A stretch of 61,406 nucleotides of DNA, the filler included, from Hausera hauseri (lineage: Eukaryota), in NCBI GenBank assembly GCA_046269625.1. It is 10 parts of 10 records of this genome, joined end to end, with 100 filler letters (N's around TTAATTAATTAA, not from the genome) between each part and the next. Parts side by side here need not be neighbours in the genome. Positions count along the whole stretch, not along the records: positions 40,879 to 47,805 come from JBJURY010051108.1; 9 more parts are not named here. One strand, given 5' to 3'. This document shows, one piece after another, positions 24,941 to 60,824 of this stretch. The position numbers and the translations under genes were made by a program. How positions within the stretch are numbered: position 1 is the stretch's first letter; each line of letters starts with the position of its first letter. The notes under the pieces are model-generated. The model saw nothing but the letters and a program-made list of their open reading frames with translations. It was not told the DNA's origin and ran no database searches.

Positions 24941-24944
24941 AGTG

Positions 24945-34589: not shown

Positions 34590-34910
34590 TGTATATACAA
34601 GGTCTCTATTTTATTTTATCTTGTACTATTCGTATGCAGCTGAAAGAAAACTTCCGTATTTTAAAATATATATATATATTATAATTAACTATATTATATA
34701 GTTTGATTATTTAAACACATAAAAATTGTAATCGTAATTTTTATTATGCTTCATAAACATTTATGAATCAAGTAAATTAAATTAACGTTTAATTATAATT
34801 TTCAAATTCCAACAAAACCTAAAAATTTTGTTCATGTATTTTATCAACCATTAAATTTTAAAATTAATAAAGAATAAATAATAACAAATCAAATTTTATT
34901 TGCAAAACTT

Positions 34911-36068
34911 TCAACTACACAATTTCTTAAATTGGGAATAGTAACTTGGATGTTGAGATGCTGTTGAGAGAAATTCTGTGACTTTCTGATAACGATTATA
35001 AGTGTCAGTAGTAATAGATGTTAAATAAGAAAATAAATCATTTCGGCGATTTTCATCGTACTCTTCATTTATCGAGTTTATTATGTGACGTGTCCAGTTA
35101 TCGAAATACAAATTATAACAGTCATATCGATCTGTACTGAATAAATTGATATCTCCAACCAAATATGTCAATACGTTTCCTATATTCTCACTTTTTGAAC
35201 TTTTAAATGAGTCAAAAAGGATTTCATTTAGACATTTAATAAAATAGCAAATATCCACTTCTGTGTCACGAATTTTATTTTTCATTCCATTGATTTCGAA
35301 CTTGATATATTTCCTGAAAGATTGTCCTTTATAATTCTTAGACATTTCAAATGAAAATGTCCTAATCTTAATATAATCGGTAAAATATTTTTCTGCAGGA
35401 TTAGAACAGTTCATTGAAAAATATACCAAAATGGTTTTCATGACGGCCAACGCCTTACTGTTGACCTCAATTTCACGAGACAAAGAATCAATTAATTTAT
35501 CACACAAATAAGGATAATTAAGAATAAAATTTGTCAATGCAATATTTTTACGGAAGATAATAAGAAGTTGCATTGCGTAACTTAAAATCACCAATTTTGA
35601 ATAGCAGTTGTCATTTAAAGTTTCATTAGCATAGGAGGATAATTTTGAAAAAAATATGAAAATTTCTCCACCATTTATATTTTCCATAAATTTGTTGATT
35701 TTATTTTTATTTTCATTCCATTGAATTTCATTTCTGTGAGTATTAAATTCCTTTATCAAACTATGGGTATTTTTTGATATACTCAGCAAATCTTCAAATT
35801 CATTGATAAATCCATTTACAATATTTGCGTAGCTTTGGATTTTCGCATTATGACATAATTCTTTGAAATTCTTCAAGTCAATGAAATTGTTAAATTTATC
35901 TTCAACATTTTCGATTTTCCTTCGATCAAATGGACAACTGTTGTTTCTTTGATATATTTCAATGAAACAATTTTTACAAAGCGGGTGTTGACATGGTTTC
36001 AGTATGTAATAATCTACATTTTTATATGACTCATAACATATTGAACATTCATCAAATTTCGAATTCAT
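34911..36068 (-). CDS. Intact intronless RING-finger protein (N-terminal C3HC3D RING plus about 320 aa helical domain), putative E3 ligase
   Basis: CSIC-x-PCQHPLCKNC-x-CPFDR in an uninterrupted 385-aa ORF within very AT-rich DNA. Confidence 0.85.
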   Translation of the reverse strand: MNSKFDECSICYESYKNVDYYILKPCQHPLCKNCFIEIYQRNNSCPFDRRKIENVEDKFNNFIDLKNFKELCHNAKIQSYANIVNGFINEFEDLLSISKNTHSLIKEFNTHRNEIQWNENKNKINKFMENINGGEIFIFFSKLSSYANETLNDNCYSKLVILSYAMQLLIIFRKNIALTNFILNYPYLCDKLIDSLSREIEVNSKALAVMKTILVYFSMNCSNPAEKYFTDYIKIRTFSFEMSKNYKGQSFRKYIKFEINGMKNKIRDTEVDICYFIKCLNEILFDSFKSSKSENIGNVLTYLVGDINLFSTDRYDCYNLYFDNWTRHIINSINEEYDENRRNDLFSYLTSITTDTYNRYQKVTEFLSTASQHPSYYSQFKKLCS

Positions 36069-39000
36069 ACTAAACTAATAGTAATTATATGAAGTTAAAA
36101 GGAAATGAAATTGAAAGAAATTTAAAATAAAATTTATTTTTCTTTTATTGGATTAATTAATTTATTTGTTTTATTTTTTTAATTTCAATTTAATTTAATT
36201 TATTTTTAATTTAAAAAGTCAAATTTAACTATTTATATTTTTATTTAATTTTAGGCGTTTCTTTATAAGCATTAAATAAAAAAAATTTTAACTGAATTGT
36301 AGTATGTTTTATTCATTTGTATTTGAAAATAAATATAATGTCTGTTACTCAAAAATAGGCCGCCAAAATTCGCTCATTTCAAGAAGATTTGTTTCAGATT
36401 TCTAAAAGGAATTTTTATCCGAAATTATGTTCATTAAGTTTTTTTCATTTTTCCATATTGAAAAGATGAAAAATCCAAATCAGTGACAAATTTTGTAATG
36501 AGTAGTGACCAAAATTTAAGATTTCTTGTGATTATTAGAGATAATTGTGAATAGAAACTATGTAGAATAGCTTGTTGAAAAATTGTCATATAATACAATT
36601 TCAGCAATAGTTACAAGTAACAAAATCTCAAGACAAATATAATAAAATGTGCAAAATATTGATTGAACATTTTCTAATTTGAATTAAATAAGACAAGGCT
36701 GATGCATGCAAAACAAAAATAAGTTATACATTTACATTCATTATTTAAATTTTCACAAATAAATTGAAATTATCAAAACCGAAATTTTAATAAATTAATA
36801 AAAATTGATTTCAATTACTTTAAAATATAACCAGAATTTAATGCAACATTAAAAATTTGACACATCTACTGAACTTTTATATTTCTTTTTGTTTTAGTTC
36901 ATAGAACTATTTTTATAAAATAATTTCATTTAATGCATAATTTAGAAATTCAATAATTTTGTATTCTTCAAAATTTATGATTTCAAAAGTAAATAATAAT
37001 CCAGTAATAATTTGTTTTAAATAATTCAATTATTATGAAAAATAAAGGATGAAACAAAAATTATTAATATATATTTTTGACTTTTATTAATTTAAAATTA
37101 TTTTAATAAAATTAATTTAATATAAAAAATGCAGTCACTAATGAAATTATTTATAAATACGACTTAATGATATATTTGCACAAATTTTTATCCTAAAAAT
37201 AATTTCTCGATTTGAAAAACATTAGCAAATACAAAGATTTTTACCAATTAAAATATGAAATATGTTTGGTAATTCTAAAATTGGAAAGATATTTTTCTTT
37301 ACACCATTATTTTAGTCCGTTAACTTTCGCTATAAAATTATTAACAAAATGTTATTTTCTGATAAATTAAAAATTGTTGATTTAAATGCTCACAAAATTA
37401 ATTAAAGAAATGATTAATTAAATTTCACTTTTTAAATTATAAAATAAATTAAATTAAATTAAAATTAAAAATTCAATTCAATTTACTAATTAATTCTACA
37501 AGAGAGAAAACATTTAATTTTTAAATTTGTATCAATATCATTTTATTTTAATTTCATACAATTATTATCGGTTTTAGTATGAATTCTAAACGAGATGAAT
37601 GAATAATACATGGAGATTAGCAAAAAATCCAATATACGTTTGTTTAAATTAAATATCGTTACACTGTTTCCATGGATCGCAACTATATTGTTTTATCATA
37701 TCATAATTATTATGATAAAACAATATAATTCAAATCCATGGCAACAAGGGCATAAAATTTACCCGAATTTTTTCTGCTTACTCTTTACGCTATGAGTCAT
37801 ATGAAAATGTGAATGATTTATCATGTGTAAATTATTCTGTGTTATTTAGAATGTAAGTATTTACTAATTCATTAAAATGATATAAAAATTAACGGTTAAT
37901 TTATTTGTCAATCAATTTAAATACCATATATAATTTGTCCACAAAAATATTGAAATATTTAATATTGGTAAAATATATTAACGCTTGCAGTAACACCCGT
38001 AGCAAAATGATAAATTTCAATTTCATCATATGTATATAAACTAAAACTATATACATCCAAAATTAAGCAAAATTTATGGTACTTTTAGGTTGTCTGACAC
38101 GAATCCTGGCTTTACTATTGATTTAGCACATTTTCTGAAATCAGATACGTAATCCTGATGGGATTATCTACGTACGTGATTATTTTCACGGTTTGGAGTT
38201 GTTTGCTACAAATATAGTTCCCTTTGTAAGTATACTGCAGATGCCTTGTTGAGACACAGCCATTGAAAGAAAAGTTCAAAATTTTGTATGTTATGATAAT
38301 TAATGCATAAACCACTATGCATAAAACTACTAGAATACCTTGTATTGATGACACATGTGCCTGTTACGCACCTTTGGAATATTCAGAAAAGAAAATTAGT
38401 TTACAAATACAACACCTTCACTTAAGCAATATATTATCAACAAACCTAGCAAATATGGTATTAAAATCTTCCGAATTAATGATTTTGTTCAAATTATGCT
38501 TTGAAAGGAAGTATTTTCTGTAACAAAGGTATATTTCAAAATGAAACAAAACTATGCTTTGTGAATACTGTTACTTTTGATTTATGTAAATCATTCTTTA
38601 AATAAAAGCGGAATGTTCCATACGACAACTGGTTTACATCAATACTAATATCCAATACTCTATTTGAGTGCAGTACCACTATTCTGGTAAATACAGAGGC
38701 TTTTATTGAAGGTATTTCAAAGAAAGTTGTGAAACCGAATACAAGTAGAAAAAGAGTTGTTTACAAGGGTAACATTTTACCTGATTGTTATTGGGATAAT
38801 GGTTTCAAATCTATTTAACTCCTATCTTTATTGCACAGCGATCTTAGGAAATGTAGTGAATTAAACCTTCTCAAAATTGTATGAGATTATAGCAACAAAA
38901 TTTAGAACAAAATTCATGGATAATATAAATAATAATAATAAATATTTATTAACGGAAGTGACAACATTCATGTGAGATGAATGTCTATACTGTACAGACA

Positions 39001-39181
39001 AGATGAATAATAACATTGCTTAAGTTCTACAGTCTCTAGTACTCAACAACATTCACAGTACCATAATGATAGAGAGTTGCGCATTGATCAAGAATAAACT
39101 TATATTTATAATTATATTATATATTTATATTTATATTATATAAGACAAAAGGAAATTGGAACCTTTTCTGCATTATATATA

Positions 39182-40778
39182 TTAGGGGTATAATATGTGT
39201 ACAGCCACAAATGATCATGGCATATTCAAATGAGTTTTTATATATAAATAAGAGAAGTGAATGTGATTATGTTGTATCTGAGAAAAAACTCTCGCATTGA
39301 CCAACAAGAAATAATGAAATTGGTGCTGATCAAACTAAAGCTATACAATGTTTACAAATGTTATAATGATAAAAAGGCAAAATATGGAAAAGCCATATGC
39401 AGGAAAACTAAGAAAAAGTTAAATTTAGTTCTTTAGTCGTGATTTGTTAATAAAAGCTTTAAATTGACAATTTCCTCAGATATGCAAACAATCTTTTATA
39501 TCCTGTAACACTTTTACTGCTCTTTCAGCGCAAATGTAAGATCTTTGTGTATTTTATAGCGGAAGGAATATCACTCCAAAACTTTTGGATTATACTGATA
39601 GTTGTTGGATAATTACTAATGACTTTCTGCAATTCTTTACCATATTCTGGATGATATATCTAATCGGAAAAACACAGTTCTGCCCACTTTGCAGCAACAA
39701 GCTTTACTGCCACGCCATGTCCTGGTATGTATTCAGGAATCAGTATGTAAGCAAGGAGTAAAAAATTGTTCTCGGGTTCCATCTTGCTTGGCTAATGCTT
39801 CTCAAACTTTTGAAATTTACCATGGGGAATTTATTTTCATTCAAATAGTATTTCACTGCATAAACAATATGAATCAAAAACTGCATGTCATCTCTCCATT
39901 TCAAATCATGCTCCACTGCTGTCAAAATTTGATCTTAGGTTGTCATAATTATTACGGATTATTTGAACAAATTCACAGGAGAGATCAGGTGAGTTTGTGT
40001 GACCTCCAAATGAATCATCCATGTACAACCTTAAAACTCGATCTTACATATGGTGTTGACAGCCAACATAGAAAGGTTTCCCAGGCCAAAATTATCGAAA
40101 TGTGTCATTAACCTTTTTATCACGCCACTTTTCGCATCTGTTTTAACACATTTTTTATCTGTCACAATCATTGTTAGTAGATCGCGTCTCTACCGTCAAT
40201 TTAGCCCACAATTCTAAGCATTCTTATGATATTATTTTAGTTGGGTATTTATATATACCTATAGTGCAACATATTGTGTGTGCGAGATTCAAAAAAATGA
40301 GTAGACATTATTTAGTTCGTGTATAAATATCTGTCCGACCGACGTTATCTGTCGAACATCTTAATAATATCGAAATATTACAACGTTACATAAAAAACGT
40401 TAAATAAATTCTGCAACATTATTTTCCTCAAAAAGACATGTATATAAAATTTAGATATTATTTTAATTAATTCTTTAACGTGTTTATAGTCTGACGCCAG
40501 GCTGGTACATCTGTTTATTATTTGCCATTTTATAGGCATTTCACATAAGCTAGCTAATGATTCTTGAGTTGTATTTTTCCTTGATCGTTTATTCTTCTCG
40601 AAATGAACCAAATTATTTTCCGTGATTCTTTGGCCTCACTCCTTGCAATAGAATTTTTGTTTGGCATCTGGAAACCGTAAACAAATGCAGCAATTAAAAT
40701 ATTCAAATTAAGTATCGAGTGAAAACTAATGATTTACAAAAGATAATCTGAGAAAATAAATTTAACTTTTAAACAAAT
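39182..40778 (-). mobile_element. Second hATm-like copy (3' TIR at 39182-39306, internally deleted transposase)
   Basis: TIR starts TTAGGGGTATAA. Transposase remnants WRDDMQFL, ISQARWN and CAERAVK. Confidence 0.7.
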
Positions 40779-41174
40779 NNNNNNNNNNNNNNNNNNNNNN
40801 NNNNNNNNNNNNNNNNNNNNNNTTAATTAATTAANNNNNNNNNNNNNNNNNNNNNNNNNNNNNNNNNNNNNNNNNNNNTATTGTGTTCGTTGAAACTGCC
40901 TACTGCCCTTACTAATGGTTTCTTCAATCTCAATCACCACCCTATCGCTATTAATCTTTCAACAGACCCAATGCTAATAATTCGCCTAAGTGAACAGTTA
41001 TTACATACCACTACTATCCCCACATATACTTCACCACTAGTACAAGCCCATCTACTTAGACAGTTGTATAATCTATTAACCAGTTCATTGTATATCGAAG
41101 ACACCAACAATATGAATCATAATATCATTGAGTTAAATCTCAATTAATTTCATTTATATTCAGATCTACCGGAA

Positions 41175-42449
41175 TGCATGTTCTGCAGAGCTATTATCCC
41201 TGAAGTGTACAGATTAACACCCTGCCTACATATGGTTTGTTTATTTTGTGTGGAACAAGTCCGAGTACGAGCCCATCCTACACCATACTGCCCTGTTTGT
41301 ACATATGAAATCAAATATTGTATTCATCATAATGCATACCCATCCGACGCCGATCAATCATTACTAGATGCCCAGACCCTTGACGTCATTGAGCCTACGG
41401 ATCATACTACCTATTACTACACCTGGAACATATCCACCCCTTTTTCTATCCCAAATTTTCAACTACACATGTGTTGTCTATGTCAAAAACCTAATAGAAT
41501 AGCCTATCAATTTAGTTGTTGTAATGCTGAGTACTGTGCTCACTGCTATCAGCTAGAATCCCATCATCGATATTTAATCTGCAGTATATGTAACTTTTGC
41601 CCCCAATTTATTTACGCATATTTCCACCATCCAAGAAGAGCCCTCCTTACCATCACTAACACACCAATTCCACAAATACTCCCGACAAGATACTTCCGAC
41701 TAGAACAACAAGCATCAGTTAGAATAGAATTCCCAATTCATAAATTTGACCCCTCTATAATAACCAGACTACCACCGATTGTTCTTCAAACACCTTTACC
41801 TCACATTAATGTTATGACTCTTTTACGACAACCATCTTCAATACCACACCCACGCTATCATCCAGAACAAATTACTAGACCATTACCTGAATTGCCAGTA
41901 CCAGTACCTACAATAATACCCACACCAGCTATTTCTTATAGCCCACCATTACCAATATCTTTACAAGAAGATTGGTTTCCTGTCTTCAGCAAATGTCCAA
42001 TTGATCTTATTTCTGACCTAGCCCCTCCTGACTTATGGGCAACATTACAATCTCACTACTACGACCAACTTCCTACATACGAATGTACTATATGCCTCAC
42101 TGAAAGAGTAACAGTAGTTCAATTTCAATGTAATCACAAACTATGTGCAACCTGTTTCAACAAACTTCGATCCCAATCTCTCAAATCGATCGACCCAGAA
42201 GACGCCCTCCAGATGACTTTTCAGAACGGAATCTCGTGCCCATATTGCAGACAGCCATCAGTCTATTATCATTTCTCCTATACCTACGACAACCGAACCC
42301 AAAGATTATGCCATTGGATGAACCCAGTGAACGACGCGACTTTGACAATCAGACCCCGAAACCTCAGTTTCATCGATGCCAGTACTCAGTGTGATCCGGA
42401 GGACCGAATCCTCTTCAAAAGGGGGAGAAATGTTGAGATACTTTATTGA
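41175..42449 (+). CDS. Triple RING-finger, Pro-rich protein running through the PPT into the LTR
   Basis: CMFC..PCLHMVCLFC..CPVC; CCLC..CCNAEYCAHC..CSIC; CTIC..QCNHKLCATC..CPYC. It is in frame with upstream ORF 40881-41147 across a single TAA. Confidence 0.85.
   Translation, partial: CMFCRAIIPEVYRLTPCLHMVCLFCVEQVRVRAHPTPYCPVCTYEIKYCIHHNAYPSDADQSLLDAQTLDVIEPTDHTTYYYTWNISTPFSIPNFQLHMCCLCQKPNRIAYQFSCCNAEYCAHCYQLESHHRYLICSICNFCPQFIYAYFHHPRRALLTITNTPIPQILPTRYFRLEQQASVRIEFPIHKFDPSIITRLPPIVLQTPLPHINVMTLLRQPSSIPHPRYHPEQITRPLPELPVPVPTIIPTPAISYSPPLPISLQEDWFPVFSKCPIDLISDLAPPDLWATLQSHYYDQLPTYECTICLTERVTVVQFQCNHKLCATCFNKLRSQSLKSIDPEDALQMTFQNGISCPYCRQPSVYYHFSYTYDNRTQRLCHWMNPVNDATLTIRPRNLSFIDASTQCDPEDRILFKRGRNVEILY
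42417..42430 (+). promoter_or_regulatory. Polypurine tract
   Basis: AAAAGGGGGAGAAA immediately followed by TGTTG. Confidence 0.75.
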
Positions 42450-45400
42450 GATACTTTAACAAACTTTAACAAACAGAGATACTTTAACAAACTTTAACAA
42501 ACATCTTTACTTTGAACATTTGATGTCATCTCGACACTTTAACAAACATCTTTCGCTGTGAATATTTGGTGTCATCTTTGAATATTTGTATATACAATTT
42601 TATTTAACTTTCCTATTGCCTCGTTGTTGAGCTTTTTTGATGAGCATGTCTTCCCACTGTCGTTTATAAGTGAATTGTTACCCAAAGAGTTTTGGTGGCT
42701 GGCTGGACAAGAGTGCAAATTGTAAATTGTAAAAGGTAAAAATTTTAATTAGAATGATGCACATAACGGAAACTTCAATCAGGTACACAACGGAAACTTC
42801 AATCAAAATAATGTAAACATAACCTAAACGTTAATGAAAAATGTTGTAAATATATTAATGTAAATATACGCCTTCTGCTGAGAGCCGATAGTGTAATAGT
42901 GTAAACAAAATGAAACAGACGTAAATCTAATAAAGCAAATGGAACATAATGACAATACAAATAATGCGAACGGAAATTAATTTAATCATTGAATTTGAAT
43001 ACAGATGAAACGGTTAAATGAAGCAAACGGAAATCAATTTAAATAATGAATTCGAAAAACTAGACAATGACACACCTTTGGAAAAACCAAAATTTAAAAG
43101 TAAAATTATTACACACCTTTGGAAAAACCGAAATTTTAAAATAGTAATGACGCATTTTAGTATTACACACCTTTGGAAAAACCGAAAATTTAAAATAGGA
43201 ATGACGTATTTTAGAAAACCGGATAATGATTCATAGCGTTACGAGAATAGGTATATAAGCAGACAGTAATTTACAATTCCAACCATTATTAACTGTCAGC
43301 AATCATTGATAAACTTTGAGGTCATTGCGAACCGATTTGACAACTTCAATTCAGATATTTGAAGAAGATCGAAACAAGTTATTCCACAACTACGAGTAAA
43401 TTGTGGTCACTTGAAACAAATACTGAAATTATTCATTTAGTACAATAAGAAATCCTATTGAGTTTCCGAACGAAGATAATTATACATTGACGTCAACTAT
43501 CACCGGACAAGAATCTTATTACAGGATATTGAAGAACCGTTACTACGACAAACCGTTGCTTTATTAAATCAGAAATATAAACATATTATGGCACAACATT
43601 CACTTAATGACCGAGAATCAAATGATGAGATTCCAACCGGTATACCATTTTATATTTTAATAGAAATTTTCATTTTTGCTCACGCCACCTCGAAATTCTT
43701 ACATATGTATACTTGATATTAGTAATGATTTTATAATAATAAATGTTATATACATATTAATTGAAATATATTGCGACGTTGGTGATAATCCACCGTAAAG
43801 ATAGCACTGACGGCGACGAAGTAATTGCCCGATCGAAATTGTGGTGCGTTGAACAGTCGTGGAGTCTCATTATGCCCTCGCTATGAATGACTGCATTATC
43901 GATTTTACCGTGGAAGGACAGCAGGATTAAGTACGGATGGTTCACAATATTCTTGGTCCATGTCAATGATTGAAAAGATTCCCACTGTTTGTATTCAGTG
44001 CAGGGTATCAATCCTAAAACGATTAAACCTACTCGTGGAGTGTATGGAAATGTCTCTAGGACGGTCAGTGATATCATGAGGAAGCCAATGATGGAGCAAA
44101 AAATCCAAGTTATTAACGGATGCCATACTAACGTCAGAAGTTATTTTGAGTGTTTTAGACTGTGGTGATTATATATTTGTTTTACCCATACATGGAGAGT
44201 GACTTATGTTTATATATTTTAGTAGATGAATTAATTGTTAGATTTAACGAATATATGACTCAATAATGAGGTATGCGTTTAGGGATGTCTGATCATTTGA
44301 GAAAGGTTGGTAATTTAAAAATAACTTATCGTTAATTGAGAATGTGTAAATTAATATACTAAAGTGGTAAATGGAGGTAGTACGACTTAAATTACAAGTA
44401 TCCTTCATAGAGAACCAGAATGATAGTCACGGGTAGTAATAAATTATCAAATGGAGAAATTATTTTATAGTTTAAAGAGTTGTTATTATTAACGATGAAT
44501 TACAGTGATGGGTTTTTCCCCTCTTTATTGAGCTGGTGTAACAGGTTTAATGAGTCAATGAATTCACCTTCTAAATGATTTGCTTAGACCAGTACAGTGA
44601 TCATACTTGTTGGGGACATATTCCTTGGATGATTTTATAGTTGATGGTGTTTTGAGGTATGTGTCTCCAAGGCTAGTGTGTTCCGTTGGTAATGAAAAAG
44701 ACTTATTGTAATTCTAAAGGATATTTATTTATACCAATAAACAAAATGTTGCACTGGCTTAATAATAGTATTATGTAAATATTAACGTTCCTTATTTAAT
44801 AGTGTAATGAGTATAAATACTACTACAAAGATTTATGGTTACCTTGTAGATAAACTGCCTTGTAGATAAGTAGAATTCTGGCTGAACTGCATATTACCAG
44901 GATAGAAACTTATAGTCATTGGAACTTTACAGATGACCTCTCGATCACATTTACATTTATTAAGGTACTTGAACAGAACGGAATTAACGAAATTGGGAGG
45001 TTGCTGTGGTAGATTACAGACTGGAAATTACCGATGTTCACCAAAAGGATCAATAAGAAAAACATCCCCTATAAGATGACATTTAATAAGAAACGTGCAG
45101 ATAACTGTTGTATTTTATAGAACATATACTCATAATGGAATTCACGCGTACGCATGTTCGCCTGTATTTGAATAATTCGACTGAGTTTGAGCGTAGCATT
45201 GGATTCATGATAACGATCTGAACTTGTTGTTGAGTCGGCATTTATTTGATGATTGATACGAATACAAACAGATAGATATAGCCTGGGACATGCAAACAAA
45301 TTTAAGTTGTTGGACGTCGATAAACCAGAACGTTTATAGGTTATAATTTAAGAAACTGTAAAGAAACTTTATTAAAATTGATGATTGAAAGACGGATTTG

Positions 45401-45582
45401 CTCTAATATCAAAGGATTGCCTCAGGAAGAAAAATGAATTTTTATATGAAAAGAATAAACTCATATCTGATGATTGACGATTAGCTTATAGGAAAATAAC
45501 GTGACTACACCTTCAGGAAGACATGAAACTTTATATGTGGGTACTTAATTAAGGTTAACAACATTAACCTCTGTACCTAACA
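42431..45582 (+). repeat. Putative long (about 3.15 kb) LTR of family B; alternatively a nested LTR starting at 42842
   Basis: TGTT...AACA termini between a PPT and a PBS. U3-like direct repeats (ACACACCTTTGGAAAAACC x3 at about 43069-43185) precede TATATAAG at about 43253. Confidence 0.6.
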
Positions 45583-45589
45583 TATAAAC

Positions 45590-45607
45590 TGGTGCCCCGA
45601 GTGAGGA
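45590..45607 (+). promoter_or_regulatory. Primer-binding site for elongator tRNA-Met
   Basis: TGGTGCCCCGAGTGAGGA; 17/18 complementary to the animal elongator tRNA-Met 3' end as I recall it (TGGTGCCCCGTGTGAGGA). Confidence 0.8.
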
Positions 45608-45715
45608 ATTTACTCTAGCAAAACCCACTAGTAAAACCACTTTAGCAAAATTATCCTAACATAAATATAAGAAGTATGACAATGACACTGTATAAATGAT
45701 ATTTAATTGTTATAG

Positions 45716-45996
45716 GTAAACTTCAGGTGGAATGCCCGATATGTTTTGAAGAATTGGGCTTGAAATACGCTTTGTTCCGGTGTACACACTACATGTGTAC
45801 ACGGTGTGCGGATACATGGTTGGCAAAACGACAGAACTGTCCCTTCTGTCGCCGTAAGGTAACCAGTTATCGATACTGGAATGCCATAGTCGTCGTATTG
45901 CCCGACGAGGATGAAGAAGAGCCAAGGGTGATCAATGAAGATCCGAACGATTTATATGTAGTGGGTCCCAATGGACTCGTGTATATGGCAATTTAA
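45716..45996 (+). CDS. RING-HC finger module (no ATG; probable spliced exon)
   Basis: CPIC..RCTHYMCTRCADTW..CPFCR; candidate acceptor TTATAG ending 45715; AATAAA at 46000. Confidence 0.8.
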
Positions 45997-46174
45997 TTTA
46001 ATAAAATATTCATTTTTGGCCTTGATGAAGAACAATAGTAGATTATGGGCGGCCCAACGGAATTGGTAATAGGCGATAGGGAGACAATAATTTGATTATG
46101 GTAGTAATAGTAGTATGAAGTCTATCTTAGAAAAAGAATAAATTAAAGAATTAAATGAATTACATTGATTTCAG

Positions 46175-46398
46175 GTTGTATTATCTGCAAGAGATTTCCA
46201 GAAACTTGGGATGAAGAGGAGATTCTCTGCCCTCTATGTTGTTTAGTGGAGAAATTGAATCAACCAGAGGATTTATTTGAATGCGGTCGTTGCAGGGAGG
46301 AAACTAACCTGGGCTTAATGACCATGGATGAAGATTGTTGTTTACTATGTCCTATCTGCGCCCTATCGTATATGACTTGGAAGAAATTGATAAATTGA
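46175..46398 (+). CDS. Cys-rich tandem zinc-finger module (probable spliced exon)
   Basis: CIIC..CPLC..CGRC..CPIC; candidate acceptor TTTCAG ending 46174. Confidence 0.55.
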
Positions 46399-46613
46399 TT
46401 AATTTATGAAATATGTAATGAAAGTAAATTGATTATTGTACCTCGCGAAATTTGGTTTTGTGTCTCATATGTGCCCTAACAGGTGGAATCGTGGATCTGT
46501 GAATGATTATAATATGATACATTTTAACATATAGAAGTCGTTTTATTAGAAGGACTTATTATTGTTAGTAAATGAATATAGAAAATACTTGGAATAAACT
46601 ATTACCATTTAAG

Positions 46614-47074
46614 GAAACGGAAACAGAAATGGAAGTGGAAATGAAGACAGAGTGGAACCAGAAAAATGCCCCATCTGCCTTGAAGAACTGATGGAGGAAA
46701 GGACCACATTGCCCTGCAAGCATAGCTACTGCAGTTCCTGTATCAACATCTGGTTGGGGGAACACAACAATTGCCCTTGCTGTAGAAGAACTTGCACATT
46801 TTGTTGGGTGTGCTCCAAATTAGTAGCAGACGATTTGGCCACTCTATCGTGCAGGTATATATTTTGCCGGTCATGCATTCTCGAATATCTGGCGTGTTGT
46901 CGAATGTGCCCCTACTGCCTGGAAACGGTAGACTTTTACGTCATGGAAGGAATTATTACATACTTGAATGTCGACAACCGCCCATCCATAGTGCTAGTGA
47001 TTGATGAGGACGACGGCAGTTGGCCAGAGGCGTGGAGAAACCCGCAGCCCTATACAATATTAGACATAGTTTAG
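46614..47074 (+). CDS. Double RING-finger module (probable spliced exon)
   Basis: CPIC..LPCKHSYCSSCINIW..CPCCR then CWVC..SCRYIFCRSC..CPYC; candidate acceptor TTTAAG ending 46613; AATAAA at 47090. Confidence 0.82.
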
Positions 47075-47148
47075 AATTAAATTATTATTAATAAAAATTA
47101 ATTGTAGTAAATCGTTTATTTTTATTATTTTAAAGTTATTTTCCCGAT

Positions 47149-47430
47149 TTGAACTCTATACCCGTATTATCACACGGATTTCAACGAAAAACAATTTATC
47201 ATTACTCAGTTTATAACCCAAATGGAACTTTTACCACAATAGGAAAGGAGTGCGCTATTTGTCTTAGCGATTATTCGACCAAGCCGGTGGAACTAGTTTC
47301 CTGCAGGCATCAGTTTTGTCGCTGTTGCATAAGGGAGTGGTTCCTCAAAAATAACACATGCCCGACGTGCCGTACAACTAATAAATTGTTCTTGTACGAA
47401 TATAAATATTATACAATAAAAAACTTATAA
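47149..47430 (+). CDS. RING-HC finger module (no ATG)
   Basis: CAICL..SCRHQFCRCCIREW..TCPTCR; AATAAA at 47430. Confidence 0.82.
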   Translation: MNSIPVLSHGFQRKTIYHYSVYNPNGTFTTIGKECAICLSDYSTKPVELVSCRHQFCRCCIREWFLKNNTCPTCRTTNKLFLYEYKYYTIKNL

Positions 47431-47473
47431 ATAAAAATTTTGTTTTCGATTTTTGAAGTATAATGCATTATAG

Positions 47474-47805
47474 ATGGAATACAGAAAATAAAAAAATTTG
47501 AACTTCAAACCCCCAGACATTGCAAATATACCAGACCAGCACAACCTAATACACTACAGTATCTGATATATTATCAGAATAGACAACTCGGACCAACAGC
47601 ATTCATTAAAAGACGGACAAGTTACTCCAGAATGACAGTATTGGACAACTCCATGAGAGATACACAGAACAGGAAAATATCATTCCTTGAATATCCAAAT
47701 TCACCTGTTCCAGGGGATTTAGCACAAGTATATGCCAATGCCGGACTATTCCGAACTCCAACGGGACAAATAAAATGCCTATATTGTCAGGGAGAATTCC
47801 AATAT
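47474..47805 (+). CDS. BIR-domain (IAP-like) protein, cut by contig end
   Basis: RKISFLEYP..LAQVYANAGLF..IKCLYCQGEFQY matches the BIR pattern R..TF..WP..LA.AGFY..V.CF.C. The frame is open back to a candidate acceptor TTATAG ending 47473. Confidence 0.72.
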
Positions 47806-48180
47806 NNNNNNNNNNNNNNNNNNNNNNNNNNNNNNNNNNNNNNNNNNNNTTAATTAATTAANNNNNNNNNNNNNNNNNNNNNNNNNNNNNNNNNNNNNNN
47901 NNNNNCACCAATATGGAAGCTGGGAAAGTTTACGCTGATTTGACTTACTTTGTTTTTGATTTTAGCTTATGATGATTAATAAATTTTATTGATTTTTTAT
48001 ATATTGTTTCTCGTCACATTAATTTAAATAGATAAATGTATACGGATAAATTAAATGATAATAAAACAAGGCACAACAACGAACAATATACATAATTTAT
48101 ACAAAACAAACAGATCACAATGAATTGTAGCAGTAATTTTATCTGTCTGTCTGCACCGAATTCTGCATGCGTGTGCGTGT

Positions 48181-50200
48181 TTATTCCAAACGCCAATATC
48201 CGTACGTCCAACTCTTATTTCGCCCTACGCACTTACGATTATCTTCATTGCATGATAAAGTCACTTTTGTATTGTTCGCCGTATACAACTGGTGCTCAAT
48301 CGATCGGATAATCGTTTGTGACACAACAGTCTTTGTCCTTCACAGATACGGCGAAAATAACCGTGGTCGATTTCCGCATTTTCGGTCCACAGTCCGTCTG
48401 AAGACTGCAGCACTTTGCACGTAGGAATATCCATTCCCAATACTGCACACGACCCTCACTTGCATCCTTGAAGCAGCCGATTTTGTTGGTGATCGCGCTG
48501 CTATACAACGGATGATCCGGTGGATAGTTTATACATCCATAACTTGCTTAGGTTTAAAACCACTTGTCCGATGTAACTTGGCCGGTCCAGAACGACTTCT
48601 TCCCGGTTTAGCAGCACCGTAACCAATCAATCGGCAATGCGCACTGAACGCCTGAACTTTGCCTTGTTCGTGTACGTGACCAACCGCTTTTCGCTATTGC
48701 ATAGGCGTACATTGAGCTGCTTTTTCAGATTCTTCACTGTTTTTCCGTACAGTGAATTGTTTTTCCGCCTTTTCGAACTTTGTACAGGCTGCGGCTCGTT
48801 TCTCCTAATTTCTATCTATGTACACCTTGAATATGTGAGCCTGAGCAAATCGGACTGCACGATGCAGCTGTGACGCGTACACGCAGATACATGTTGAACT
48901 GTAGCAGACACCAATGGACCACGTAATTCAGCTTCGGTTCATGTGTCATGAGCAGTTTCTTCACTTTTGAGCCTGACGGACATTAGTTAAATGGTGCTAC
49001 CGGTAAATCGTCCAAAACGTCATGCAGCTCATCTGGTACCACGAGATCGACCTCCATCAGATATCCGACTGAGCCTGCCATGTCTGCTCGTGGTAGGTTG
49101 ACCACTATATTATCCAGATCTTGTCTGTCGACAACCCATTCGGATGAACCGTACGGCAAGGGTTGCGAAAGCGCCCAGCCATACAGGTTATTAATATCAA
49201 TGTACAGCAGTGATGTGATATCGGTAGCACGGACCTGATGCTTGTTGACAAATATCACGCCGTCGCTAATACCAACATCAAACAGCCGGTACATTTTCGG
49301 GTCTTTCAGCAGCTCAATGTCTCGATCTAGTGACATTAGAGCTGACGCCCATCTCATTCCCGGTATGGAATAAAAGTTTAGTGGCTTCAGCCTATCTTCA
49401 GCCAACGCTTTCGCTCGAAACGCCTGGAACACATCGGCTAACAGGTACACGTCCAGGTTAAGATACTGGAGCATGTAATCCAACATGTTTCTACAGCCGA
49501 GTTTTGTCCAAGATTCTTGTGCTGTCTGATATTCAAGTTGTGTTGCCTGTCCATCGCGGCGGTAATTCCTCTGCTGTCCGGAGTCGCTCATATGATGTTA
49601 CAATGTCATATGGAAATATGCCTTTGGTGCGTGCAATGTGTGGGGAACTGCGTTGAGGTTATCGGCACGTCCGGCAAGGCATTTACTAGCTTCGTCAGTG
49701 ATTCATTGGGAAATTGCAATGAATCAAGGAAGCGTACCTGGAACCGGTTCATGCCTGCTGATGGGGACAGATACTTCTGCATTGTTGGGATAATGGACAT
49801 TTCCCAGTGCGGAAATCCGTTGATAGCCCATTTCTGTATATGGTGACAATCATAACCTCGGAAATTATGAAAGATCACCGGTAGGAATGGCTGCAAACGT
49901 CTTGCTAAATTGAATGCGTTGCATGCTGCTCCCAAGTATCGACCGGTAAAAAGGTCGTGATCCGGTACGAGCCGTTCCATTGCGTCAAGCGGTAATATTT
50001 TATGGCACAGATAACATTCCTCTGTCTCTGCAAACGTCAGGTGTTCATCTTCATCTGTTCAAATCAGGGATTTTGAGCTGTTATTCCAATACCACGGTGA
50101 GATTTCCGATTCAACTATTGTTTCCAAATGATGCAGGAATTTATGCACACAGTTCCAGCCGTGAAACATGTAATACTGCGATTGACCTTCAGCTTTTATT
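48181..50200 (-). pseudogene. Polinton pPolB, second copy (internally deleted)
   Basis: IFHNFRGYD, FLDSLQF, LDVYLLADVF, LLYIDINNLYGWA, NNSLYGKT, IGCFKD, YGYWRLE*; homologous to contig 1. Confidence 0.92.
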
Positions 50201-52974
50201 TGTACTGTGAGTAGATCGCGTCTCTACCATTTCGACCTCAACATCACTTGATGATTGTAAGATTGATTTACCCATAAGATATTTAGTATGAAAGTTTATA
50301 ACATTTATCTCCTTCATTCGGGAGATGAACCTTATTTTCCTTCTTTTTTGAATTTCCTAGCTTTCTGTTGGCTGTTTACTGAATTACCTTTGAATTAAAT
50401 TTAAACCTTAATATCCGTTTCAATTCCTCCTCACATTCACGTTAGTCAACCGATCGTTCAAAATATTTTTGAAATCAAAGTATCATGTTACAATCAGTTC
50501 ACACAAAAGTATATAGCAGGATAAATTAGTAACTTTTATTCATCTAATATGGAAACGAATTTTACTGTAAATCTGGATTATTTATGACGAATATTCAGAA
50601 GATGTGCAGAATATAATTCTGATTAACAATATGAAAAAATGCAATGATGCTCCGATAACGCATTTGGAGCCCTAAAATGTAACAGCATTTCGCACTTGTT
50701 AAAATCTCCCGCACTATGTTTACATATTTTGAACTTCGTTCCTTTTTTCGTGCTAATGTTTCTTTATTAATCGATTTACAATGTTTTCTTGATGTTCTAT
50801 CAATCTAACATGTATTGGTGCAATTTAAAATAGATAAAATTGATAAAATCAGTTTTGCACGTGCCAATCGATAGTGCACATGAAGCACTACCGATCGGTA
50901 ATGTGTTAGGCGACGGTGCCATTAGTAACCGTTGATAAGCACATTTTTGCAAATTTCACAAATCGATAGCTGCACAGTGCAGTATTAATCGAATCGATCG
51001 GGATAAAGTGCTAATCGATAGTGTACATCAGGGCGCATCGATTGGTGCACAGTTCTGGTGCACTGCACATGTGCAAGTGAGTAGATAGAAGTGATTGTTT
51101 TGCAGCACTTCTCTGATTGGTCCGCCGACCAGTTTTCCCCACTTGATTGGCTAATCTGAACATTTCACTAAAATTTTCTCACGACCGTCCCCTGGCCGAA
51201 AAGGATATCGAGCAATGGACTTTGTACCAAGTAATATCGATAGCCCGTGACGAGGTGAGCAAAAGTTAATGTAGGTACGGTATGCGAAAAATGTAATGAA
51301 AAGGCGCTAGAAGAGGAAGAAGCAAAACAGGAAATTCTCCACGTGCAACGCGAAACATGTTTCTAGCACTGAGAAAAAGTGTACAAGGGGTAGATCGACA
51401 TTGGTGATTGCAATGGACACTGTTGTATCTCGGTCAGACCATGGGAACATGAGGAAAAATCGATGGGAAAAATTTAAATGGGGAAAAATTCCCCTTACAC
51501 AAGTCAAACGGCGATGGAAATGGGTTGAGCTCATAGCCCATCAGTAGTTGAGCCTTTTATATTATAGCCGCCTCACGATAAGACGAAAGGATCCAGGTGA
51601 AAATGGCAACCGAACAAACAACCGAACCGAAAAAACGCATTGTTAAAAGTCTAAGTCAAAAAGGTAGAAGTGAGCTTTCAACCCCATTTCCCAAAAGTGC
51701 TCAGATCGACCTCGGACCACGTTTTCCCCACCTATCTCGCAATTATGAGCATTTCATGTTTTTTGGTACGAGACTTCCCCAGCCGGAAGCACACGTCACA
51801 TGTCACACATGTCACCGATGGAAATCGGTAGAGCTTGATGAGTGGAACAAAATTTTCTATTGCGGTGAGAGTCCAAAATTTTACTGGGCGGCGCTAGAAG
51901 CAAAAGAAGCAAAAGAGAAAATGTTTTGTGAGAAACGAGACACGAGTTACGAATTGTGCAATGTTCGGTGCAGATGTCAAACTGATGTAGGGGAATCGAA
52001 TGCGNNNNNNNNNNNNNNNNNNNNNNNNNNNNNNNNNNNNNNNNNNNNTTAATTAATTAANNNNNNNNNNNNNNNNNNNNNNNNNNNNNNNNNNNNNNNN
52101 NNNNACATTCTTTCTATAAATTCCATTCATTTCATACAAATTTCATGTGTCAAATCAATTTTTTCACAACAGGATATCAACATCATACCAACACATCCTG
52201 GTCATTAAGAAATTAATTAAGGAAGTCAAATAAGGATATGCCCCATGAAAGTCAAAAATATATACCACAAGACACATACAGTCTACAAAATCGAATGCAC
52301 AAAGCGCAAAGCATTCTATTTTCCATATTCGAATTTTCAAACGTTTCAATAAAAGAGATTGTTAAAACACAGAAAATATAATTAGTACTTTATGAACTGA
52401 CCGTGATCGTGTTGACTAACGAATACTAGAAACCCTTTACATAAAACAAAGCCAAAAATAAATAAAAAAGAGGAAGCAAACGAATTGACGGGCATAACCA
52501 TCGAAATGCGGAAACAAATAAAGTGGTTACTTATTTTACATAATGCCCAAATGATATATTTATTGAATTCGAAAAATCAATACTCCGAAGATCTTGAAGA
52601 AGGCAGTATCTGCCGATACGTCGATCAAATATTAAATTTTTGCAGTATCGGCCTTGTTTGAAAATAAGTATCAGAAAGTGGTTAATTTGTGCCATTTTAA
52701 CATTTTCTCTATACAATTGACAGTTGAAAACTAAGAATATTAAGAATAATAAACAGCATTTGTACAAAAGTCAGATAAATGTTCATGTTCAATCGAGCGC
52801 AATGTAATTGTCAGACGAACAACTTAAAGCCAATAATGAATCACCATTAGTGATCACCGGTGAGTGGTCGTTGGTCAGTTTACGTCAAAAATTAGTCACT
52901 CAATATACAAAACATTATTGTTGAGGCCTATGTTGGAATATTACAGTTTCTAGATTTGCTTACGCTTTCACAGA

Positions 52975-55437: not shown

Positions 55438-56670
55438 CACTGCCTGGTCATAAGTAAATGGACACTACAAAAAGTCGATAGTAGAGTTTTGTGTTAACAA
55501 ACACAAATTATACAGTGACAGTTTATTTCACATGACACACTATTGTATGTATTATATGTTGTAGGTGTTAATTGATTTTTACAAAGGCAAGTTTTGATTG
55601 GTTTTGTCATTATCATTATCCTTCATCCATTTAAATCCTTTCTTTTTTCTGTCACTTCTATTTGCATTAAGTCGCGCATACCTTGTGCTAATAAAATATC
55701 GGATTTTATGAAAGGTCGCATTGTTGGATAGTTGGGGACAAGAAGATCTCAACGCAATATTGCCGCTTCTTTGAATCTTCCTCTTTCCATAGTTAACAAT
55801 GTCGTGTGCCAATTTCATTGTCATGAGAAGTGCAGTGTAATACCCCAGACGTGGAGAACCAAAACCAACTCAACTATTTCTTCGAAATATCAGACGAAGT
55901 GTTGCATATAAGCATCGTTAACCGGCTACGGAAATTGCACAAGAAGCTTCAGTGTCTGTAAAAACAGTTCGACGTTAATTAAAAAAAAATTTGGCTACCG
56001 CGGGAGAGTAGCAAAACGAAAGCTTTTAATGTGTGCAACGAATATTGCAAAACGCTTAGTCTGGACGAGGGAGATGAGTCACAAACCTAACAATTTCTGG
56101 CAAAGCGTCATCTTTAGTGATGAAAGTTCCTTTCAGCAATTCCCTTCTGGTGGCCCTACCTGGGTGTGGTGTCGTTCCCACCAAAAATTTCAAAACAAGC
56201 GTCTCCAGCCAACTGTGAAACACAGTTTAGTGTCTTGGTGTAGTGAGCTATTTGTTGGAGTGTGAGATCAGATCTGGTACGTTGCCAAAGTTCAATAAAT
56301 TCAACAGCCTCATGTCAACTACTTCAAGAAGGCCTTCTGCCAGCCTACCAAGTTCGAAGTACTTCCCGAATAAATTCTCCCTTCATGCAAGACAATGTAC
56401 CTTCCTACGCCGCTCGAGCAACTAAAGCATGGCTGGAACACAAAGGAATTTTATGATTAAATTGGACTGCTCAATCACCGGATATAAATCCGATTGAGTC
56501 GGTGTAGTTTAATTTCGATCAAGCATATCGAAAACGAAAAGACAAGCCGAAATCTGTTGATATTCTGTTTTATGCTCTCAAAGAGGAATGGGCAGCGATC
56601 CCACAGGCAAAAAATATTAAGCTTATCCAGCCTATGCCAGAATGTGTATCTGAACTTTTAAATGCCAAAA
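55438..56670 (+). mobile_element. Tc1/mariner transposon, 3' truncated and decayed
   Basis: TA followed by the TIR-like CACTGCCTGGTCATAAGTAAATGGACAC; VIFSDESSF, FMQDN and W.AQSPDINPIE motifs. Confidence 0.88.
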
Positions 56671-56689
56671 GAACACATCGAAAACCGAC

Positions 56690-57211
56690 CGACACAGAAT
56701 TATATCCAACTTTGTCAAGTTTCTCTCATAGAAAGTATAATAGAACAGAACATACAAACTGTGTTCGGATATTCAAAGTATAAACATGGCATTTGAAAAT
56801 TTAAATAACATTTTAAACAATAATGGCTATCCGGATTATTTAATATACAATGCCATTAGAAAAGTGTTGGACAAATTCTATTCACCGAAAACAATATTTT
56901 GACGAACTCTAATCAAACCACAAATGTTTTTCACAGCTTCGATCCAGGTGGTTTAACAGAAAACATTCCAGAAACCTTAGACATAGAAAACGATAAAGAC
57001 AATAAACGCATAAATTTAAAATATCGATTAATTTTAAAATTGCCGTTTTCAGAAGGTTCTAAGGAATTAAAATTAAAAATTTTAACATTATTGCCTAAAG
57101 AAGCCAATTTAAATGTTATATTTACTATTAAGCAAATCATTGATCTATTTAGTAATAAATCTGCCACACCACTCGATGTTCAGTCTAACCTTGTATATAA
57201 ATTTGATTGTC
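56690..57211 (+). pseudogene. Penelope-like element fragment (RT thumb, linker, start of GIY-YIG endonuclease)
   Basis: NNGYP..LI..AI, LKLPF..GS and QSNLVYKFDC at the contig end. Confidence 0.75.
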
Positions 57212-57311: not shown

Positions 57312-60288
57312 AATGTAGCCGTTTGATGCATACACCTAACTGCATGTAAAATTGAAACAGACGCCAATAAACTGTGTAATTTTGCTTGGGTTCGTGCATC
57401 ATAAGCAGCTTCTTCACCTTCGAGCTCGACGGACATTGGTTAATTGTTGCGACCGGCAGTTCATCCAGAAAGTCATGCAGCTCATCTGGCACCACAAGAT
57501 CGACTTCCATCAGTTATCCGATTGAGCTGTTTTCTGTTGTGTCTGCTCTAGGTAATTTTCAATTATGTCGTCCAGGTCCTGTTTGTCGACTATCCATTCA
57601 AATGAACCATACGGCAAGGGTTGTGAAAGCGCCCAGCCCTACAGGTTATTAATATCAATATACAGCAATGATGTTGTATCGGTATCACAGATCTGATGCT
57701 TGTTGACACATTTCATAATGCCGCAAATACCAACATCAAACAGCCGATACATTCCCGGGTCTTGCATCAGCTCAATGTCTTGATCCAGTGACATTAGAGC
57801 TGATACTCAACTCATTCCCGGTATGGAATAAAAGTTGAGTGACGCCAGCCTATCTTCAGCCAACGCTTTCGCCCGAAACGCCTGGAACACATCGGCCAAT
57901 AAGTACACGTCCAGTTTAAGATACTGAAGCATGTAATCCAACATGTTTCTACAACCGAGTTATGTCCAACACCTCTGTGCATTCCGGTATTCATCCTCTG
58001 CGAAACCTTCCACCACAACGGTAATTCCTCTGCTGTCTGGAGTCGCTCATATGATGTTGCAAAGTCATATGGAAATATTCCTTTGCTGCATGCAATATGT
58101 ATAGGGAAATGCGTTAAGGTTATCGGCACATCTGGCAAGGCATTGACCAGTTTCGCCAGCGATTCATTGAGAAATTGCAATGAATCAAGGAAACGTACCT
58201 GAAACCCCTTTAGGCGTGCTGGCAGGGACAGGTCCTTCTCCATTGTTGTTGGTATTATGCACAGTTCTCGGTCCAAAAATCCGTTGATCGCCCATTTCGG
58301 TATATGGTGACAATCATAACCTCGGAAATTATGAAAAATCACCGGTAGAAATAGTGGCACACGCCTCGGTAAATGGCATGAATTACATGCTGTTCCCAAG
58401 TATCAACCTGTAAAATGGTCGTGATCCGGTACGAATCATTCTTGTGCATCAAACGGTAATATTTTGTGGTACCGATAACATTCCTCTGTGACTGCAAGCG
58501 TCAGGCGTTCATCTTCATGTGTGCAAATCGGAGGTTCTGTGCTGTTATTGAGATACAACGGTGCGATTTCCGACTCAACTATTGTTGCCAAATGATGCAT
58601 TACATCAATCACGCAGTACCAGCCGTAAAACATGTAATGCTGCGGTTGACCTGCAGCTTTTATTGGGACAACCAATATACCGACGGCAATTGGAAGGTAT
58701 TTTTCATCGTATACGTCGTGTCATTGTAGGATTGCTTCGGTATCAGCATATATCACATATACTGGACTATACGTCTTAGACCAGTCACTAAATCGCAGCT
58801 CCTTTTTGGCTGGCATGACGTACATTGTTGTTCCTGATGCATTCTGTGTGCACAGCGTCACATGTTTTCCCACGTGGTTTCTGATCTGAAGCCATGCAGA
58901 CATGTAGGACACCAGTTTCAACGTATTTGTTTTTGGACAAACTGATGGTGATCCATGTTCAACAATCGGTCCAAATTTGTTACGGCCACGTAATGAAATT
59001 TTTCTGCCTGCTCCAACAATAACAAATTTACTCTGCGTCCATTCAGGTTCCAACTTCGATAGATTATATCCACATGTGGATTCTTGTCGATTTATTCGTC
59101 TGCCGGTATTTCAACTATTGTATTGTACCGGAACACGTTGATTGACAGCATCGGATTACGCCGTTCAAATGTTAAAATGGTTTTTAGTTTCATCGGCATC
59201 CAGTTTTTGTCAAATTGCAATTCGGAAAAATACTGCCGATACTGACTTGGACGATATGCACTATATCTGTGCACTTTGTCATATTTTAGTACAGCCAGAA
59301 TACTGTAAATAAAACAGTAATCATCGTCCGTGTTTTTTACATTTACTACCGTATAAGTGTGCTTTAGATCTTCAGGTGTCGGTATAAATGAACGTCCGGA
59401 CAGGTAAATTTTCAATCGAATTTGTTATAATAAAACCGAAAGTGACGATTTTTACTACTTGCCAACCACTGCCCTTTTTGGTGTAGTTGGCGATTTTTTC
59501 GTCCAGCTTTTCTCCTATGTTGGCAGTGAAATCTTTGGAATATGGAGCTGTTCGATGTCACAGGTACCATTGTTTCCTGCCACTCTGCAAATTCTCAAAT
59601 TCTGCAAGTGCATTATATTGCACTTTGCAGTTGTGGTGTTTGAATTTCTCCACTTCGGTTTCTAACCGGTTGCGCACATGAGCGGGTACATGCCTCAGTA
59701 GAATTGCTGATTTCGCCGACATGTTTAATTTTATTTCCATGTACGATCTGTTTGGGTCCTACTTGACAGTAATTGGCGGTTCCTGCTGCTGCTGCTGCTG
59801 ATGCTCTGTATTGCTGCATTGCAGGTATTCGTCAAGACTTTTTGACGCTTGACGCTTTTTGCTTCCAACAATATTTCCTTTTTAGACCTCTGAAACTGGT
59901 TCAAGTGGTCTTTGTGCTCATTATAAAATTGTTCATAGTTGATTTCATCAACTACAGAACAACAACCGGGACAAACGTAGGCCCGTTTACCGTACACCGT
60001 TGTGGCCGCATAGTACTGCTCCATTTTACTATGGCAACCATCAACGTTGTGCACTTCACTAGTACAATACCTTGGGTAGAAGGAGCAATGCACACGCATC
60101 ATCTTCTTAGACCGAGTAAACGGTCCGAAATGATGCTTCTGCACCTTATGAAAGTTGGCCTATGGACAAGGGGCCGAAATACTACCTCACGTTGGGCACA
60201 AATATGAGTCCGTATCAACGAAGTAATATTTAGCCAATTGTTGATGGTACTGCTCCTGCTCCATATGTATGCGCGAGATGCAATACAT
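57312..60288 (-). pseudogene. Polinton pPolB, third copy, retaining the longer N-terminal region
   Basis: YADTE, DHFTG, IFHNFRGYD, KGIFPYD and LLYID motifs. N-terminal IPTP..VVNVKNTDDDYCFIYSIL..FERRNP..SINVF segment at 59092-59415. Confidence 0.92.

Positions 60289-60792: not shown

Positions 60793-60824
<32 letters not shown>

Follow-up and report, generated by a model that had tools for sequence, protein, structure and literature searches.

A candidate array of spliced RING-finger exons around the LTR of a multicopy retroelement of Hausera hauseri

Results

Organisation of the contig

The window, that is the whole stretch of 61,406 nucleotides of Hausera hauseri DNA analysed here (assembly GCA_046269625.1), is made of ten contigs joined by N linkers, and the feature under study lies within the contig at positions 40879-47805. 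Over 6.9 kb this contig displays, in order, a RING ORF that extends to a polypurine tract (PPT), an LTR, a primer-binding site (PBS), four zinc-finger frames and a BIR-like frame. The features are as follows.

40881..41147, + strand: open frame running off the contig start, tail of an upstream ORF of the element; no meaningful Pfam match; multicopy in 4/4 runs
41164..42449, + strand: 3' accessory ORF, ATG-less, 427 codons, with two RINGs and a middle Cys cluster; candidate phase-1 acceptor 41163
42417..42430, + strand: polypurine tract, the longest purine run in the contig, with TG directly after it
42431..45582, + strand: putative single LTR of 3,152 bp, with TG...CA ends and an imperfect terminal inverted repeat
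43066..43259, + strand: a 54-nt unit present three times in tandem, with the TATA box 43252 behind it; likely U3 promoter
43588..43645, + strand: candidate coding leader, starting at the ATG that comes first behind the TATA box; 17 codons and one further base, weak phase-1 GT at 43640
43738..43743, + strand: AATAAA, candidate LTR poly(A) signal by presumed role, some 100 nt behind the candidate donor
45590..45607, + strand: tRNA-Met primer-binding site, 7 nt beyond the LTR end and unique in the window
45716..46005, + strand: R1, RING-HC plus SIM-like acidic tail; candidate phase-1 acceptor 45715, stop 45996, AATAAA 46000
46175..46398, + strand: Zn2, Cys-pair zinc module of no Pfam family; candidate phase-1 acceptor 46174
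46614..47095, + strand: R3, two RINGs plus SIM-like acidic tail; candidate phase-1 acceptor 46613 (alternative 46661), stop 47074, AATAAA 47090
47243..47435, + strand: R4, RING-HC; candidate phase-1 acceptor 47242 (or 47209), stop 47430, AATAAA 47430
47474..47805, + strand: BIR-like frame, cut by the contig end; phase-1 AG 47473, own ATGs at 47632 and 47653

No gag, pol or env and no retroviral RT was found in contig 40879-47805, and the core genes lie outside it. The contig consists of the 3' internal end, one 3,152-bp LTR and the 5' internal start of the element, and it represents either a tandem with one common LTR or an assembly that ran across a collapsed LTR. Elsewhere in the window, contigs contain pieces of Gypsy-type RT, integrase and gag, of protein-primed polymerase and of a Tc1-type element, together with a mononegavirus-type fusion gene, which suggests that the source is animal repeat DNA, probably of an invertebrate. 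Assignment of the cassette to the window's Burro-like element (contig 16822-22553) was rejected on account of a different PBS and no DNA likeness; that contig has a PBS-like word at 17724, gag about 300 nt later and no RING cassette. By blastn, contig 40879-47805 had no match in the rest of the window, and related loci with flanks were not found in viral, metagenome or genome contig collections.

The element is a multicopy LTR retroelement

Copies were compared by using assembled contigs of six of the seven public runs found, X1-X4 for the whole contig and X1, X2, X5 and X6 for positions 45400-46230. None of the seven is listed as an RNA run, which says nothing about expression. The run contigs are of unrecorded kind, and those of X1 and X2 are taken to be genomic DNA, since they extend over the non-coding LTR. 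Placed in X1 were 9,804 contigs, mostly 80-95% alike. An X1 contig spans the PPT and the LTR start, and in four of the four runs contigs stop matching ("go loose") behind 42434. At the opposite side, the CA end at 45576-45582 is an imperfect inverted repeat of the LTR start, and one X2 contig follows the LTR as far as 45582 exactly, beyond which it continues with 72 unlike letters. We infer that both ends are part of one LTR, within which the tandem repeats and the TATA box at 43252 are likely to be the U3 promoter. The PBS word equals the A-ending tRNA-Met PBS printed in PMC1084362 at 17 of 18 letters, and depth spikes at 45568-45623, with the LTR-end/PBS junction at 20,595 and 14,100 in X1 and its flanks at 33-134; these are summed contig depths, which differ from copy number and separate repeat from low-copy sequence only. 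Behind the PBS the spacer differs among copies: 18 contigs stop matching behind 45615, and depth there is 33-35. By its PPT, LTR ends, PBS and diverged copies, the element is a multicopy LTR retroelement. Frames of decayed appearance are also present within the LTR and the spacers.

The low depth just behind the PBS (33-35), the different GC skew of the two internal parts and the lack, among the contigs listed, of one covering the whole stretch would suit a nest or a mis-join, with a cassette foreign to the owner of the PPT, LTR and PBS. However, the PPT-TG and CA-PBS junctions are exact and share one orientation, and X1 contigs bridge both the PPT/LTR start and the PBS side/R1 acceptor side, so that we regard such an origin as very improbable. 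In the X1 contig of the latter bridge, the spacer 45621-45686 is replaced by 25 other letters with the surroundings kept, and at least 42 letters on each side of the joint (45620-45687) link the PBS side to the R1 acceptor side.

The zinc modules lack start codons and are preceded by phase-1 AGs

Pfam RINGs above the cut-off were found in R1 (E 2.8e-10), R3, R4 and the 3' ORF, the second RING of R3 scoring below the cut-off. The first-pass annotation had described the modules as RINGs with poly(A) signals of their own, which holds for R1, R3 and R4 and fails for Zn2; the latter is not a RING, gives weak zinc-ribbon-like Atlas matches with no Atlas family, and has no AATAAA near its stop, the next one being at 46593. 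The 3' ORF had been called a triple-RING frame; two of its RINGs are Pfam matches and the supposed third is the middle Cys cluster, for which there is no Pfam match. This ORF reads over the PPT into the LTR start. Recognition of the BIR frame is weak (Pfam BIR E 0.054, partial; Atlas BIR clusters 0.92), and no longer form of this frame, which ends at the contig edge, was found among 25 candidates. A search for R3 homologs found none.

When the frames are read from the upstream stop, none of the five zinc frames (41148, 45700, 46159, 46613 and 47134) has an in-frame ATG before its first Cys, which bears out the observation first made for the four cassette modules and extends it to the 41148 ORF. 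The idea of an ATG-less array stands for these five and has to be given up for the BIR frame, which has its own ATGs (47632 and 47653) ahead of the domain and need not be spliced.

A phase-1 AG lies ahead of all six frames, ending at 41163, 45715, 46174, 46613, 47242 (also 47209) and 47473. Five of these had been proposed from the start (45715, 46174, 46613, 47473 and 41163), and every coordinate and phase proved correct; the accompanying doubt that the 47149 module fits phase 1 is removed by the AGs at 47242, three codons before the first Cys, and at 47209. We ranked the sites by an acceptor score that is hand-made, crude and written after the sites were seen. The best-scoring AG before the first Cys is in phase 1 in 4/6 frames (41163, 45715, 46174 and 46613, at the 99.5th, 97.9th, 97.3rd and 87th percentile among 5,939 AGs, respectively), and in phase 2 for R4 (the 47134 frame) and the BIR frame (47135 and 47516, respectively), with 47135 only slightly above the phase-1 AG. 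All three of the frames with their first Cys within the first 12 codons have a top-decile phase-1 best AG, the corresponding figure being 20/255 for control frames in their first 12 codons. The acceptor sites are not independent, since the common phase could come from one duplicated ancestral exon.

As had been noted, an AATAAA lies within 20 nt of three stops: it starts +4, +16 and 0 nt from the stop ends (46000, 47090 and 47430) in three of the four complete cassette modules. An equally near AATAAA was counted in 13/270 window frames of at least 60 aa, these three included.

The modules could also be expressed singly, each from a local promoter and with a near-cognate start or a private ATG micro-exon, and without a shared leader. 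In-frame GTG or TTG codons before the first Cys in 4/5 zinc frames (R1, Zn2, R3 and R4), possible ATG..GT micro-exons in the case of Zn2, R3 and the 3' ORF, TATA-like words at 45691, 47401 and 47426, and the ATGs of the BIR frame would all serve such expression; in contrast, no near-cognate start precedes the first Cys of the 3' ORF, the spacers of R1 and R4 (and that of the BIR frame) hold no micro-exon option, the available donors are poor, and the spacers are AT-rich and span 40-215 nt. We consider single expression unlikely.

Conservation of acceptor regions and reading frames among copies

Conservation of the acceptors across copies had been put forward as a check, and we followed it at two sites. 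At 46174 the base before the AG is only C or T among the rows listed (404 of 854 depth in X1), so that the acceptor is kept as YAG among these, and the sequence upstream of 46164 diverges in contigs of X1, X2 and X5 (three of four runs); likeness therefore begins 11 nt before the Zn2 exon. Ahead of 45715, depth climbs from 33 to roughly 100 at about 30 nt from the AG, where likeness to other copies resumes. Besides, one X1 contig (depth 12.4) joins 46458 to 46660 via 10 letters, 6 of which are T, and at this joint a T-rich tract stands directly before the phase-1 AG 46660-46661. No GT..AG ends were seen among the joints listed in the run contigs, which show presence and not absence.

Among the best-supported differences listed, 14/18 are silent in R1 (binomial p 1e-4) and 14/19 in the 3' ORF (binomial p 3e-4), as compared to 0.30 expected, both p values being tested against 0.33; the silent differences listed for Zn2, R3, R4 and the BIR frame are 1/4, 1/2, 1/1 and 0/1, respectively. 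These counts cover the best-supported rows, with 963 and 43 further rows outside the counts and rows outside frames excluded. R1 and the 3' ORF are under purifying selection.

Homologs of the 3' ORF are only unnamed ENA proteins, P0001 (65%), P0002 (59%) and P0005, which form three clusters and whose called starts all lie inside the first RING. P0001 and P0002 end over the purine tract, like the 3' ORF of the window, and homologs at 59-65% identity keep an open frame of 383-425 aa. P0006 matches the last 54 positions only, and P0007 was dropped as a generic RING match (E 7e-4). Gene callers may pick internal starts such as those of the homologs for other reasons.

An acceptor followed by a RING, a stop and an AATAAA has the look of a host terminal exon, and LTR elements capture extra ORFs (PMC6431247, PMC5408684). 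The modules might, in this light, be captured last exons of host RING/IAP genes, carried as unexpressed passengers with their old acceptors and poly(A) signals; the decayed-looking frames in the LTR and spacers would fit among such passengers. Against this origin stand the purifying selection that R1 and the 3' ORF show among copies and the 383-425 aa frame that homologs keep at 59-65% identity. Moreover, modules that are only about 25% alike still keep the acceptor beside the first Cys. Passenger status is thus quite improbable.

A candidate coding leader in the LTR

The LTR is the more promising place for a shared donor, because 18 contigs stop matching behind 45615, past the PBS. The first ATG behind the TATA box lies at 43588 with A in position -3 and G in position +4, and the 305 nt from 43283 are ATG-free, which is equalled in 20/2,285 windows. 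The first GT after this ATG, at 43640, is followed by T-rich sequence (T 0.43 vs 0.23); its donor score is 3.5, and a scan at cut 4 gave weak candidates only. A phase-1 first GT is common (19/44 ATGs), and the frame of ATG 43588 is open for 36 codons further upstream. With a leader ending in G, seven of the seven tested acceptor junctions are open, and with one ending in T there are stops at R3 and R4. GT 43640 may be the actual donor, to which we give a real chance that is well short of even.

On balance, we think it fairly probable that the ATG-less zinc-finger frames are alternative last exons joined by splicing to a single short coding leader, a reading drawn from the DNA sequence. Acceptor conservation, purifying selection, homolog starts inside the RING and the LTR/PBS context all speak for the terminal-exon part of this reading, which was already proposed at first pass. 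The further proposal of one upstream leader for all modules now has a candidate within the LTR and needs amending for the 41164 ORF, which is upstream of the LTR shown; this ORF is therefore placed at the element's 3' end and would be reached from the element's own 5' LTR.

The acceptors might instead take a trans-spliced leader, from a host SL RNA or another element transcript, with no cis leader in the LTR. The candidate cis donor is weak, and operon spacers are short and AT-rich with a poly(A) signal and then an acceptor, which is what the spacers of the cassette resemble. The spliced leader that ends in AUG is the flatworm type. However, an AUG-ending leader needs phase 0, and in 3/5 zinc frames the first Cys is preceded by no AG in phase 0; an AUG-less leader would leave the RING untranslated. 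Trans-splicing appears most improbable to us.

If the zinc frames are alternative last exons behind a leader in the LTR, transcription would start from the TATA box at 43252, and the leader donor (candidate 43588 to 43640) would be joined to one acceptor per transcript. Each transcript would end at the next poly(A) signal and thereby carry the leader and one module. As the member at the 3' end, the 3' ORF would occupy a pX-type position, be reached by a long splice and end in the 3' LTR. Genomic RNA would have to pass the nearby poly(A) signals, possibly in foamy-virus style with U1 at a donor in R suppressing them; in foamy virus, U1 at the donor in R suppresses the 5' poly(A) (PMC3694450).

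SIM-like tails in R1 and R3

In R1 and R3, two of the six frames, the RING is N-terminal, and the tail consists of a hydrophobic core of four residues with an acidic run behind it. The SIM consensus, which is degenerate, consists of a hydrophobic core plus an acidic run (PMC8616421). Our SIM-like pattern, written after the tails were seen, matched 0/265 control frames and 5 and 14 of 5,000 shuffles. R1 and R3 may be SUMO-targeted ubiquitin ligases, and they resemble RNF4 and ICP0 in combining a RING with a SIM-like motif. The HSV-1 protein ICP0 counters intrinsic silencing and has a RING plus SIM layout (PMC3174244). Unlike ICP0 and RNF4, R1 and R3 are of about 90-150 aa and have a single SIM-like motif each. 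PDB matches to RNF4 and to a herpesvirus RING are at generic RING level (24-37 bits per domain). Kinship of R1 to RNF4 by way of the top PDB match was rejected, since in that match a two-RING chain had been scored twice. Silencing of transposons in animals uses SUMO, and the products of the array would be small RING E3 ligases, among which R1 and R3 may act in a SUMO-targeted manner against host silencing or defence.

Discussion

As far as the DNA can tell, the array is a real feature, and what is new in it is the array form of putatively spliced retroelement accessory genes. The likeness to accessory genes of complex retroviruses, suggested at the outset, is apt in that both involve pX-type frames without a start of their own. 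The mRNAs of pX end in the 3' LTR. In BLV, upstream exons supply the start codon of Tax, R3 and G4, that of G4 coming from R of the 5' LTR (PMC1839114), and in HTLV-1 p30 and Tax/Rex have exons 1 and 2 in common (PMC6731619). The array would share with deltaretrovirus pX the accessory frames without own start, the alternative acceptors and, for the 41164 ORF, the position just before an LTR. It differs from pX in that most modules are 5', behind the PBS, and are non-overlapping paralogous RING exons, three of which have their own AATAAA.

In Drosophila, lola and mod(mdg4) splice a common coding 5' part to many alternative zinc-finger last exons; those are host genes with a large BTB part, whereas here a mobile element would splice a predicted short leader to RING exons. 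The env of Drosophila gypsy is made from a spliced mRNA. Spliced single accessory products are also known from Cer1 of C. elegans (CERV, PMC10309623) and from LTR elements of bdelloids (ORF3s, PMC5408684). Each of these elements has one non-RING extra, in contrast to the five or six alternative last exons proposed here.

Burro, the planarian giant Gypsy-like element, carries ubiquitin- and apoptosis-related extras, BIR among them, and in one species an upstream accessory ORF; most of its extras are domains within a single 4,873-aa polyprotein (PMC6431247). In contrast to the RING exon array described here, no such array is named for Burro in the available text of PMC6431247; PMC8532177 was consulted on expression, and the available text of PMC6338049 does not mention a RING. 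No LTR element with a RING exon array was found in the open literature consulted, and supplements and repeat databases may contain the family.

A wider reading would liken the element to a lola-like switchboard, in which one LTR leader serves five or six last exons that flank the core genes on either side. It would yield a variable miniature E3 arsenal, partly SUMO-targeted, that dismantles SUMO-dependent transposon silencing, with modules gained, lost or replaced between subfamilies. We hold this wider reading to be speculative and somewhat unlikely.

Diagrams of invertebrate LTR retrotransposons usually show gag and pol and no more than a single additional ORF. An array of spliced E3 ligase exons, if true, would place the gene regulation of such an element on a par with that of complex retroviruses, and it would be missed by ORF-based annotation, as gene callers begin the homologs within the RING. 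The layout also raises an RNA-processing question, namely how genomic RNA deals with several internal poly(A) signals that lie less than 2 kb from the PBS. Finally, the products combining a RING with a SIM-like tail, if SUMO-targeted, would be small and testable candidates for transposon-encoded counter-silencing in animals.

Extent of the 3′ ORF and composition of the cassette contig

The 3′ ORF of the cassette contig has no stop ahead of the putative LTR, as its frame crosses the polypurine tract and runs into the first LTR bases (42417–42449). The same read-through into the LTR start is found in the homologous ENA proteins P0001 and P0002 and in P0006, which aligns over the last 54 positions only. 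On the same strand, the 3′ internal part (41164–42449) is rich in C (0.27) and poor in G (0.13); the 5′ cassette (45583–47805) is G-skewed (C 0.17, G 0.20). Within the LTR, one contig (depth 8) from the public sequencing run X1 aligns as far as 43293 and resumes at 43613, so a diverged LTR retains the segments that surround the predicted start site (near 43280) and the candidate donor (43640).

Other mobile-element pieces and a separate RING frame

The window also carries the following features.

Features on the other contigs of the window
34911–36074 (−), contig 33358–40778: ATG-started RING frame, 387 codons, RING N-terminal (Pfam E 2.5e-9)
16822–22553 (+), 5167–9791 (−), 22654–25000 (+): Burro-like giant Gypsy element, in broken pieces
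7563–8729: mononegavirus-type fusion gene, part of the Burro-like pieces (Pfam E 2e-22)
29639–32613 (−): second, ordinary Gypsy element, broken, with gag, RT and integrase
55912–56783 (+): Tc1-type transposase, broken
1–5066, 47906–52004, 57312–61406: Polinton-type region, three copies, with protein-primed DNA polymerase B

The 387-codon frame lies in very AT-rich DNA, enclosed by inverted repeats (36072–36252/37394–37574 and 34461–34597/39174–39310) and by a direct repeat some 370 nt long (33903–34272/40196–40778 region); it shares only the RING with the cassette, to which it is otherwise unrelated. The Burro-like pieces comprise an LTR end with a PBS-like word at 17724, gag and a long polyprotein, the fusion gene being placed between the gag side and the protease/RT. 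The three Polinton-type copies are diverged and broken, with a mutual likeness of 75–86%.

Possible further modules and uneven depth across the cassette

Four more acceptor-like AGs on the cassette contig are each followed by a phase-1 frame, and these frames may be extra or decayed modules.

Phase-1 frames after further acceptor-like AGs
46483–46499 (AG at 46482): mini-exon, 5 codons
46042–46079 (AG at 46041): short frame
43999–44168 (AG at 43998): 55-codon frame inside the LTR
40966–41147 (AG at 40965): 59-codon frame

Summed X1 contig depth over 45716–47805 differs strongly between modules, from about 170 (R1) to 500–700 (Zn2), 1,600–1,950 (R3), 930 (R4) and as much as 9,700 (BIR end), figures which are distinct from copy number and exclude diverged module copies. 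Because depth is uneven from module to module, these data hint that the make-up of the cassette differs among subfamilies.
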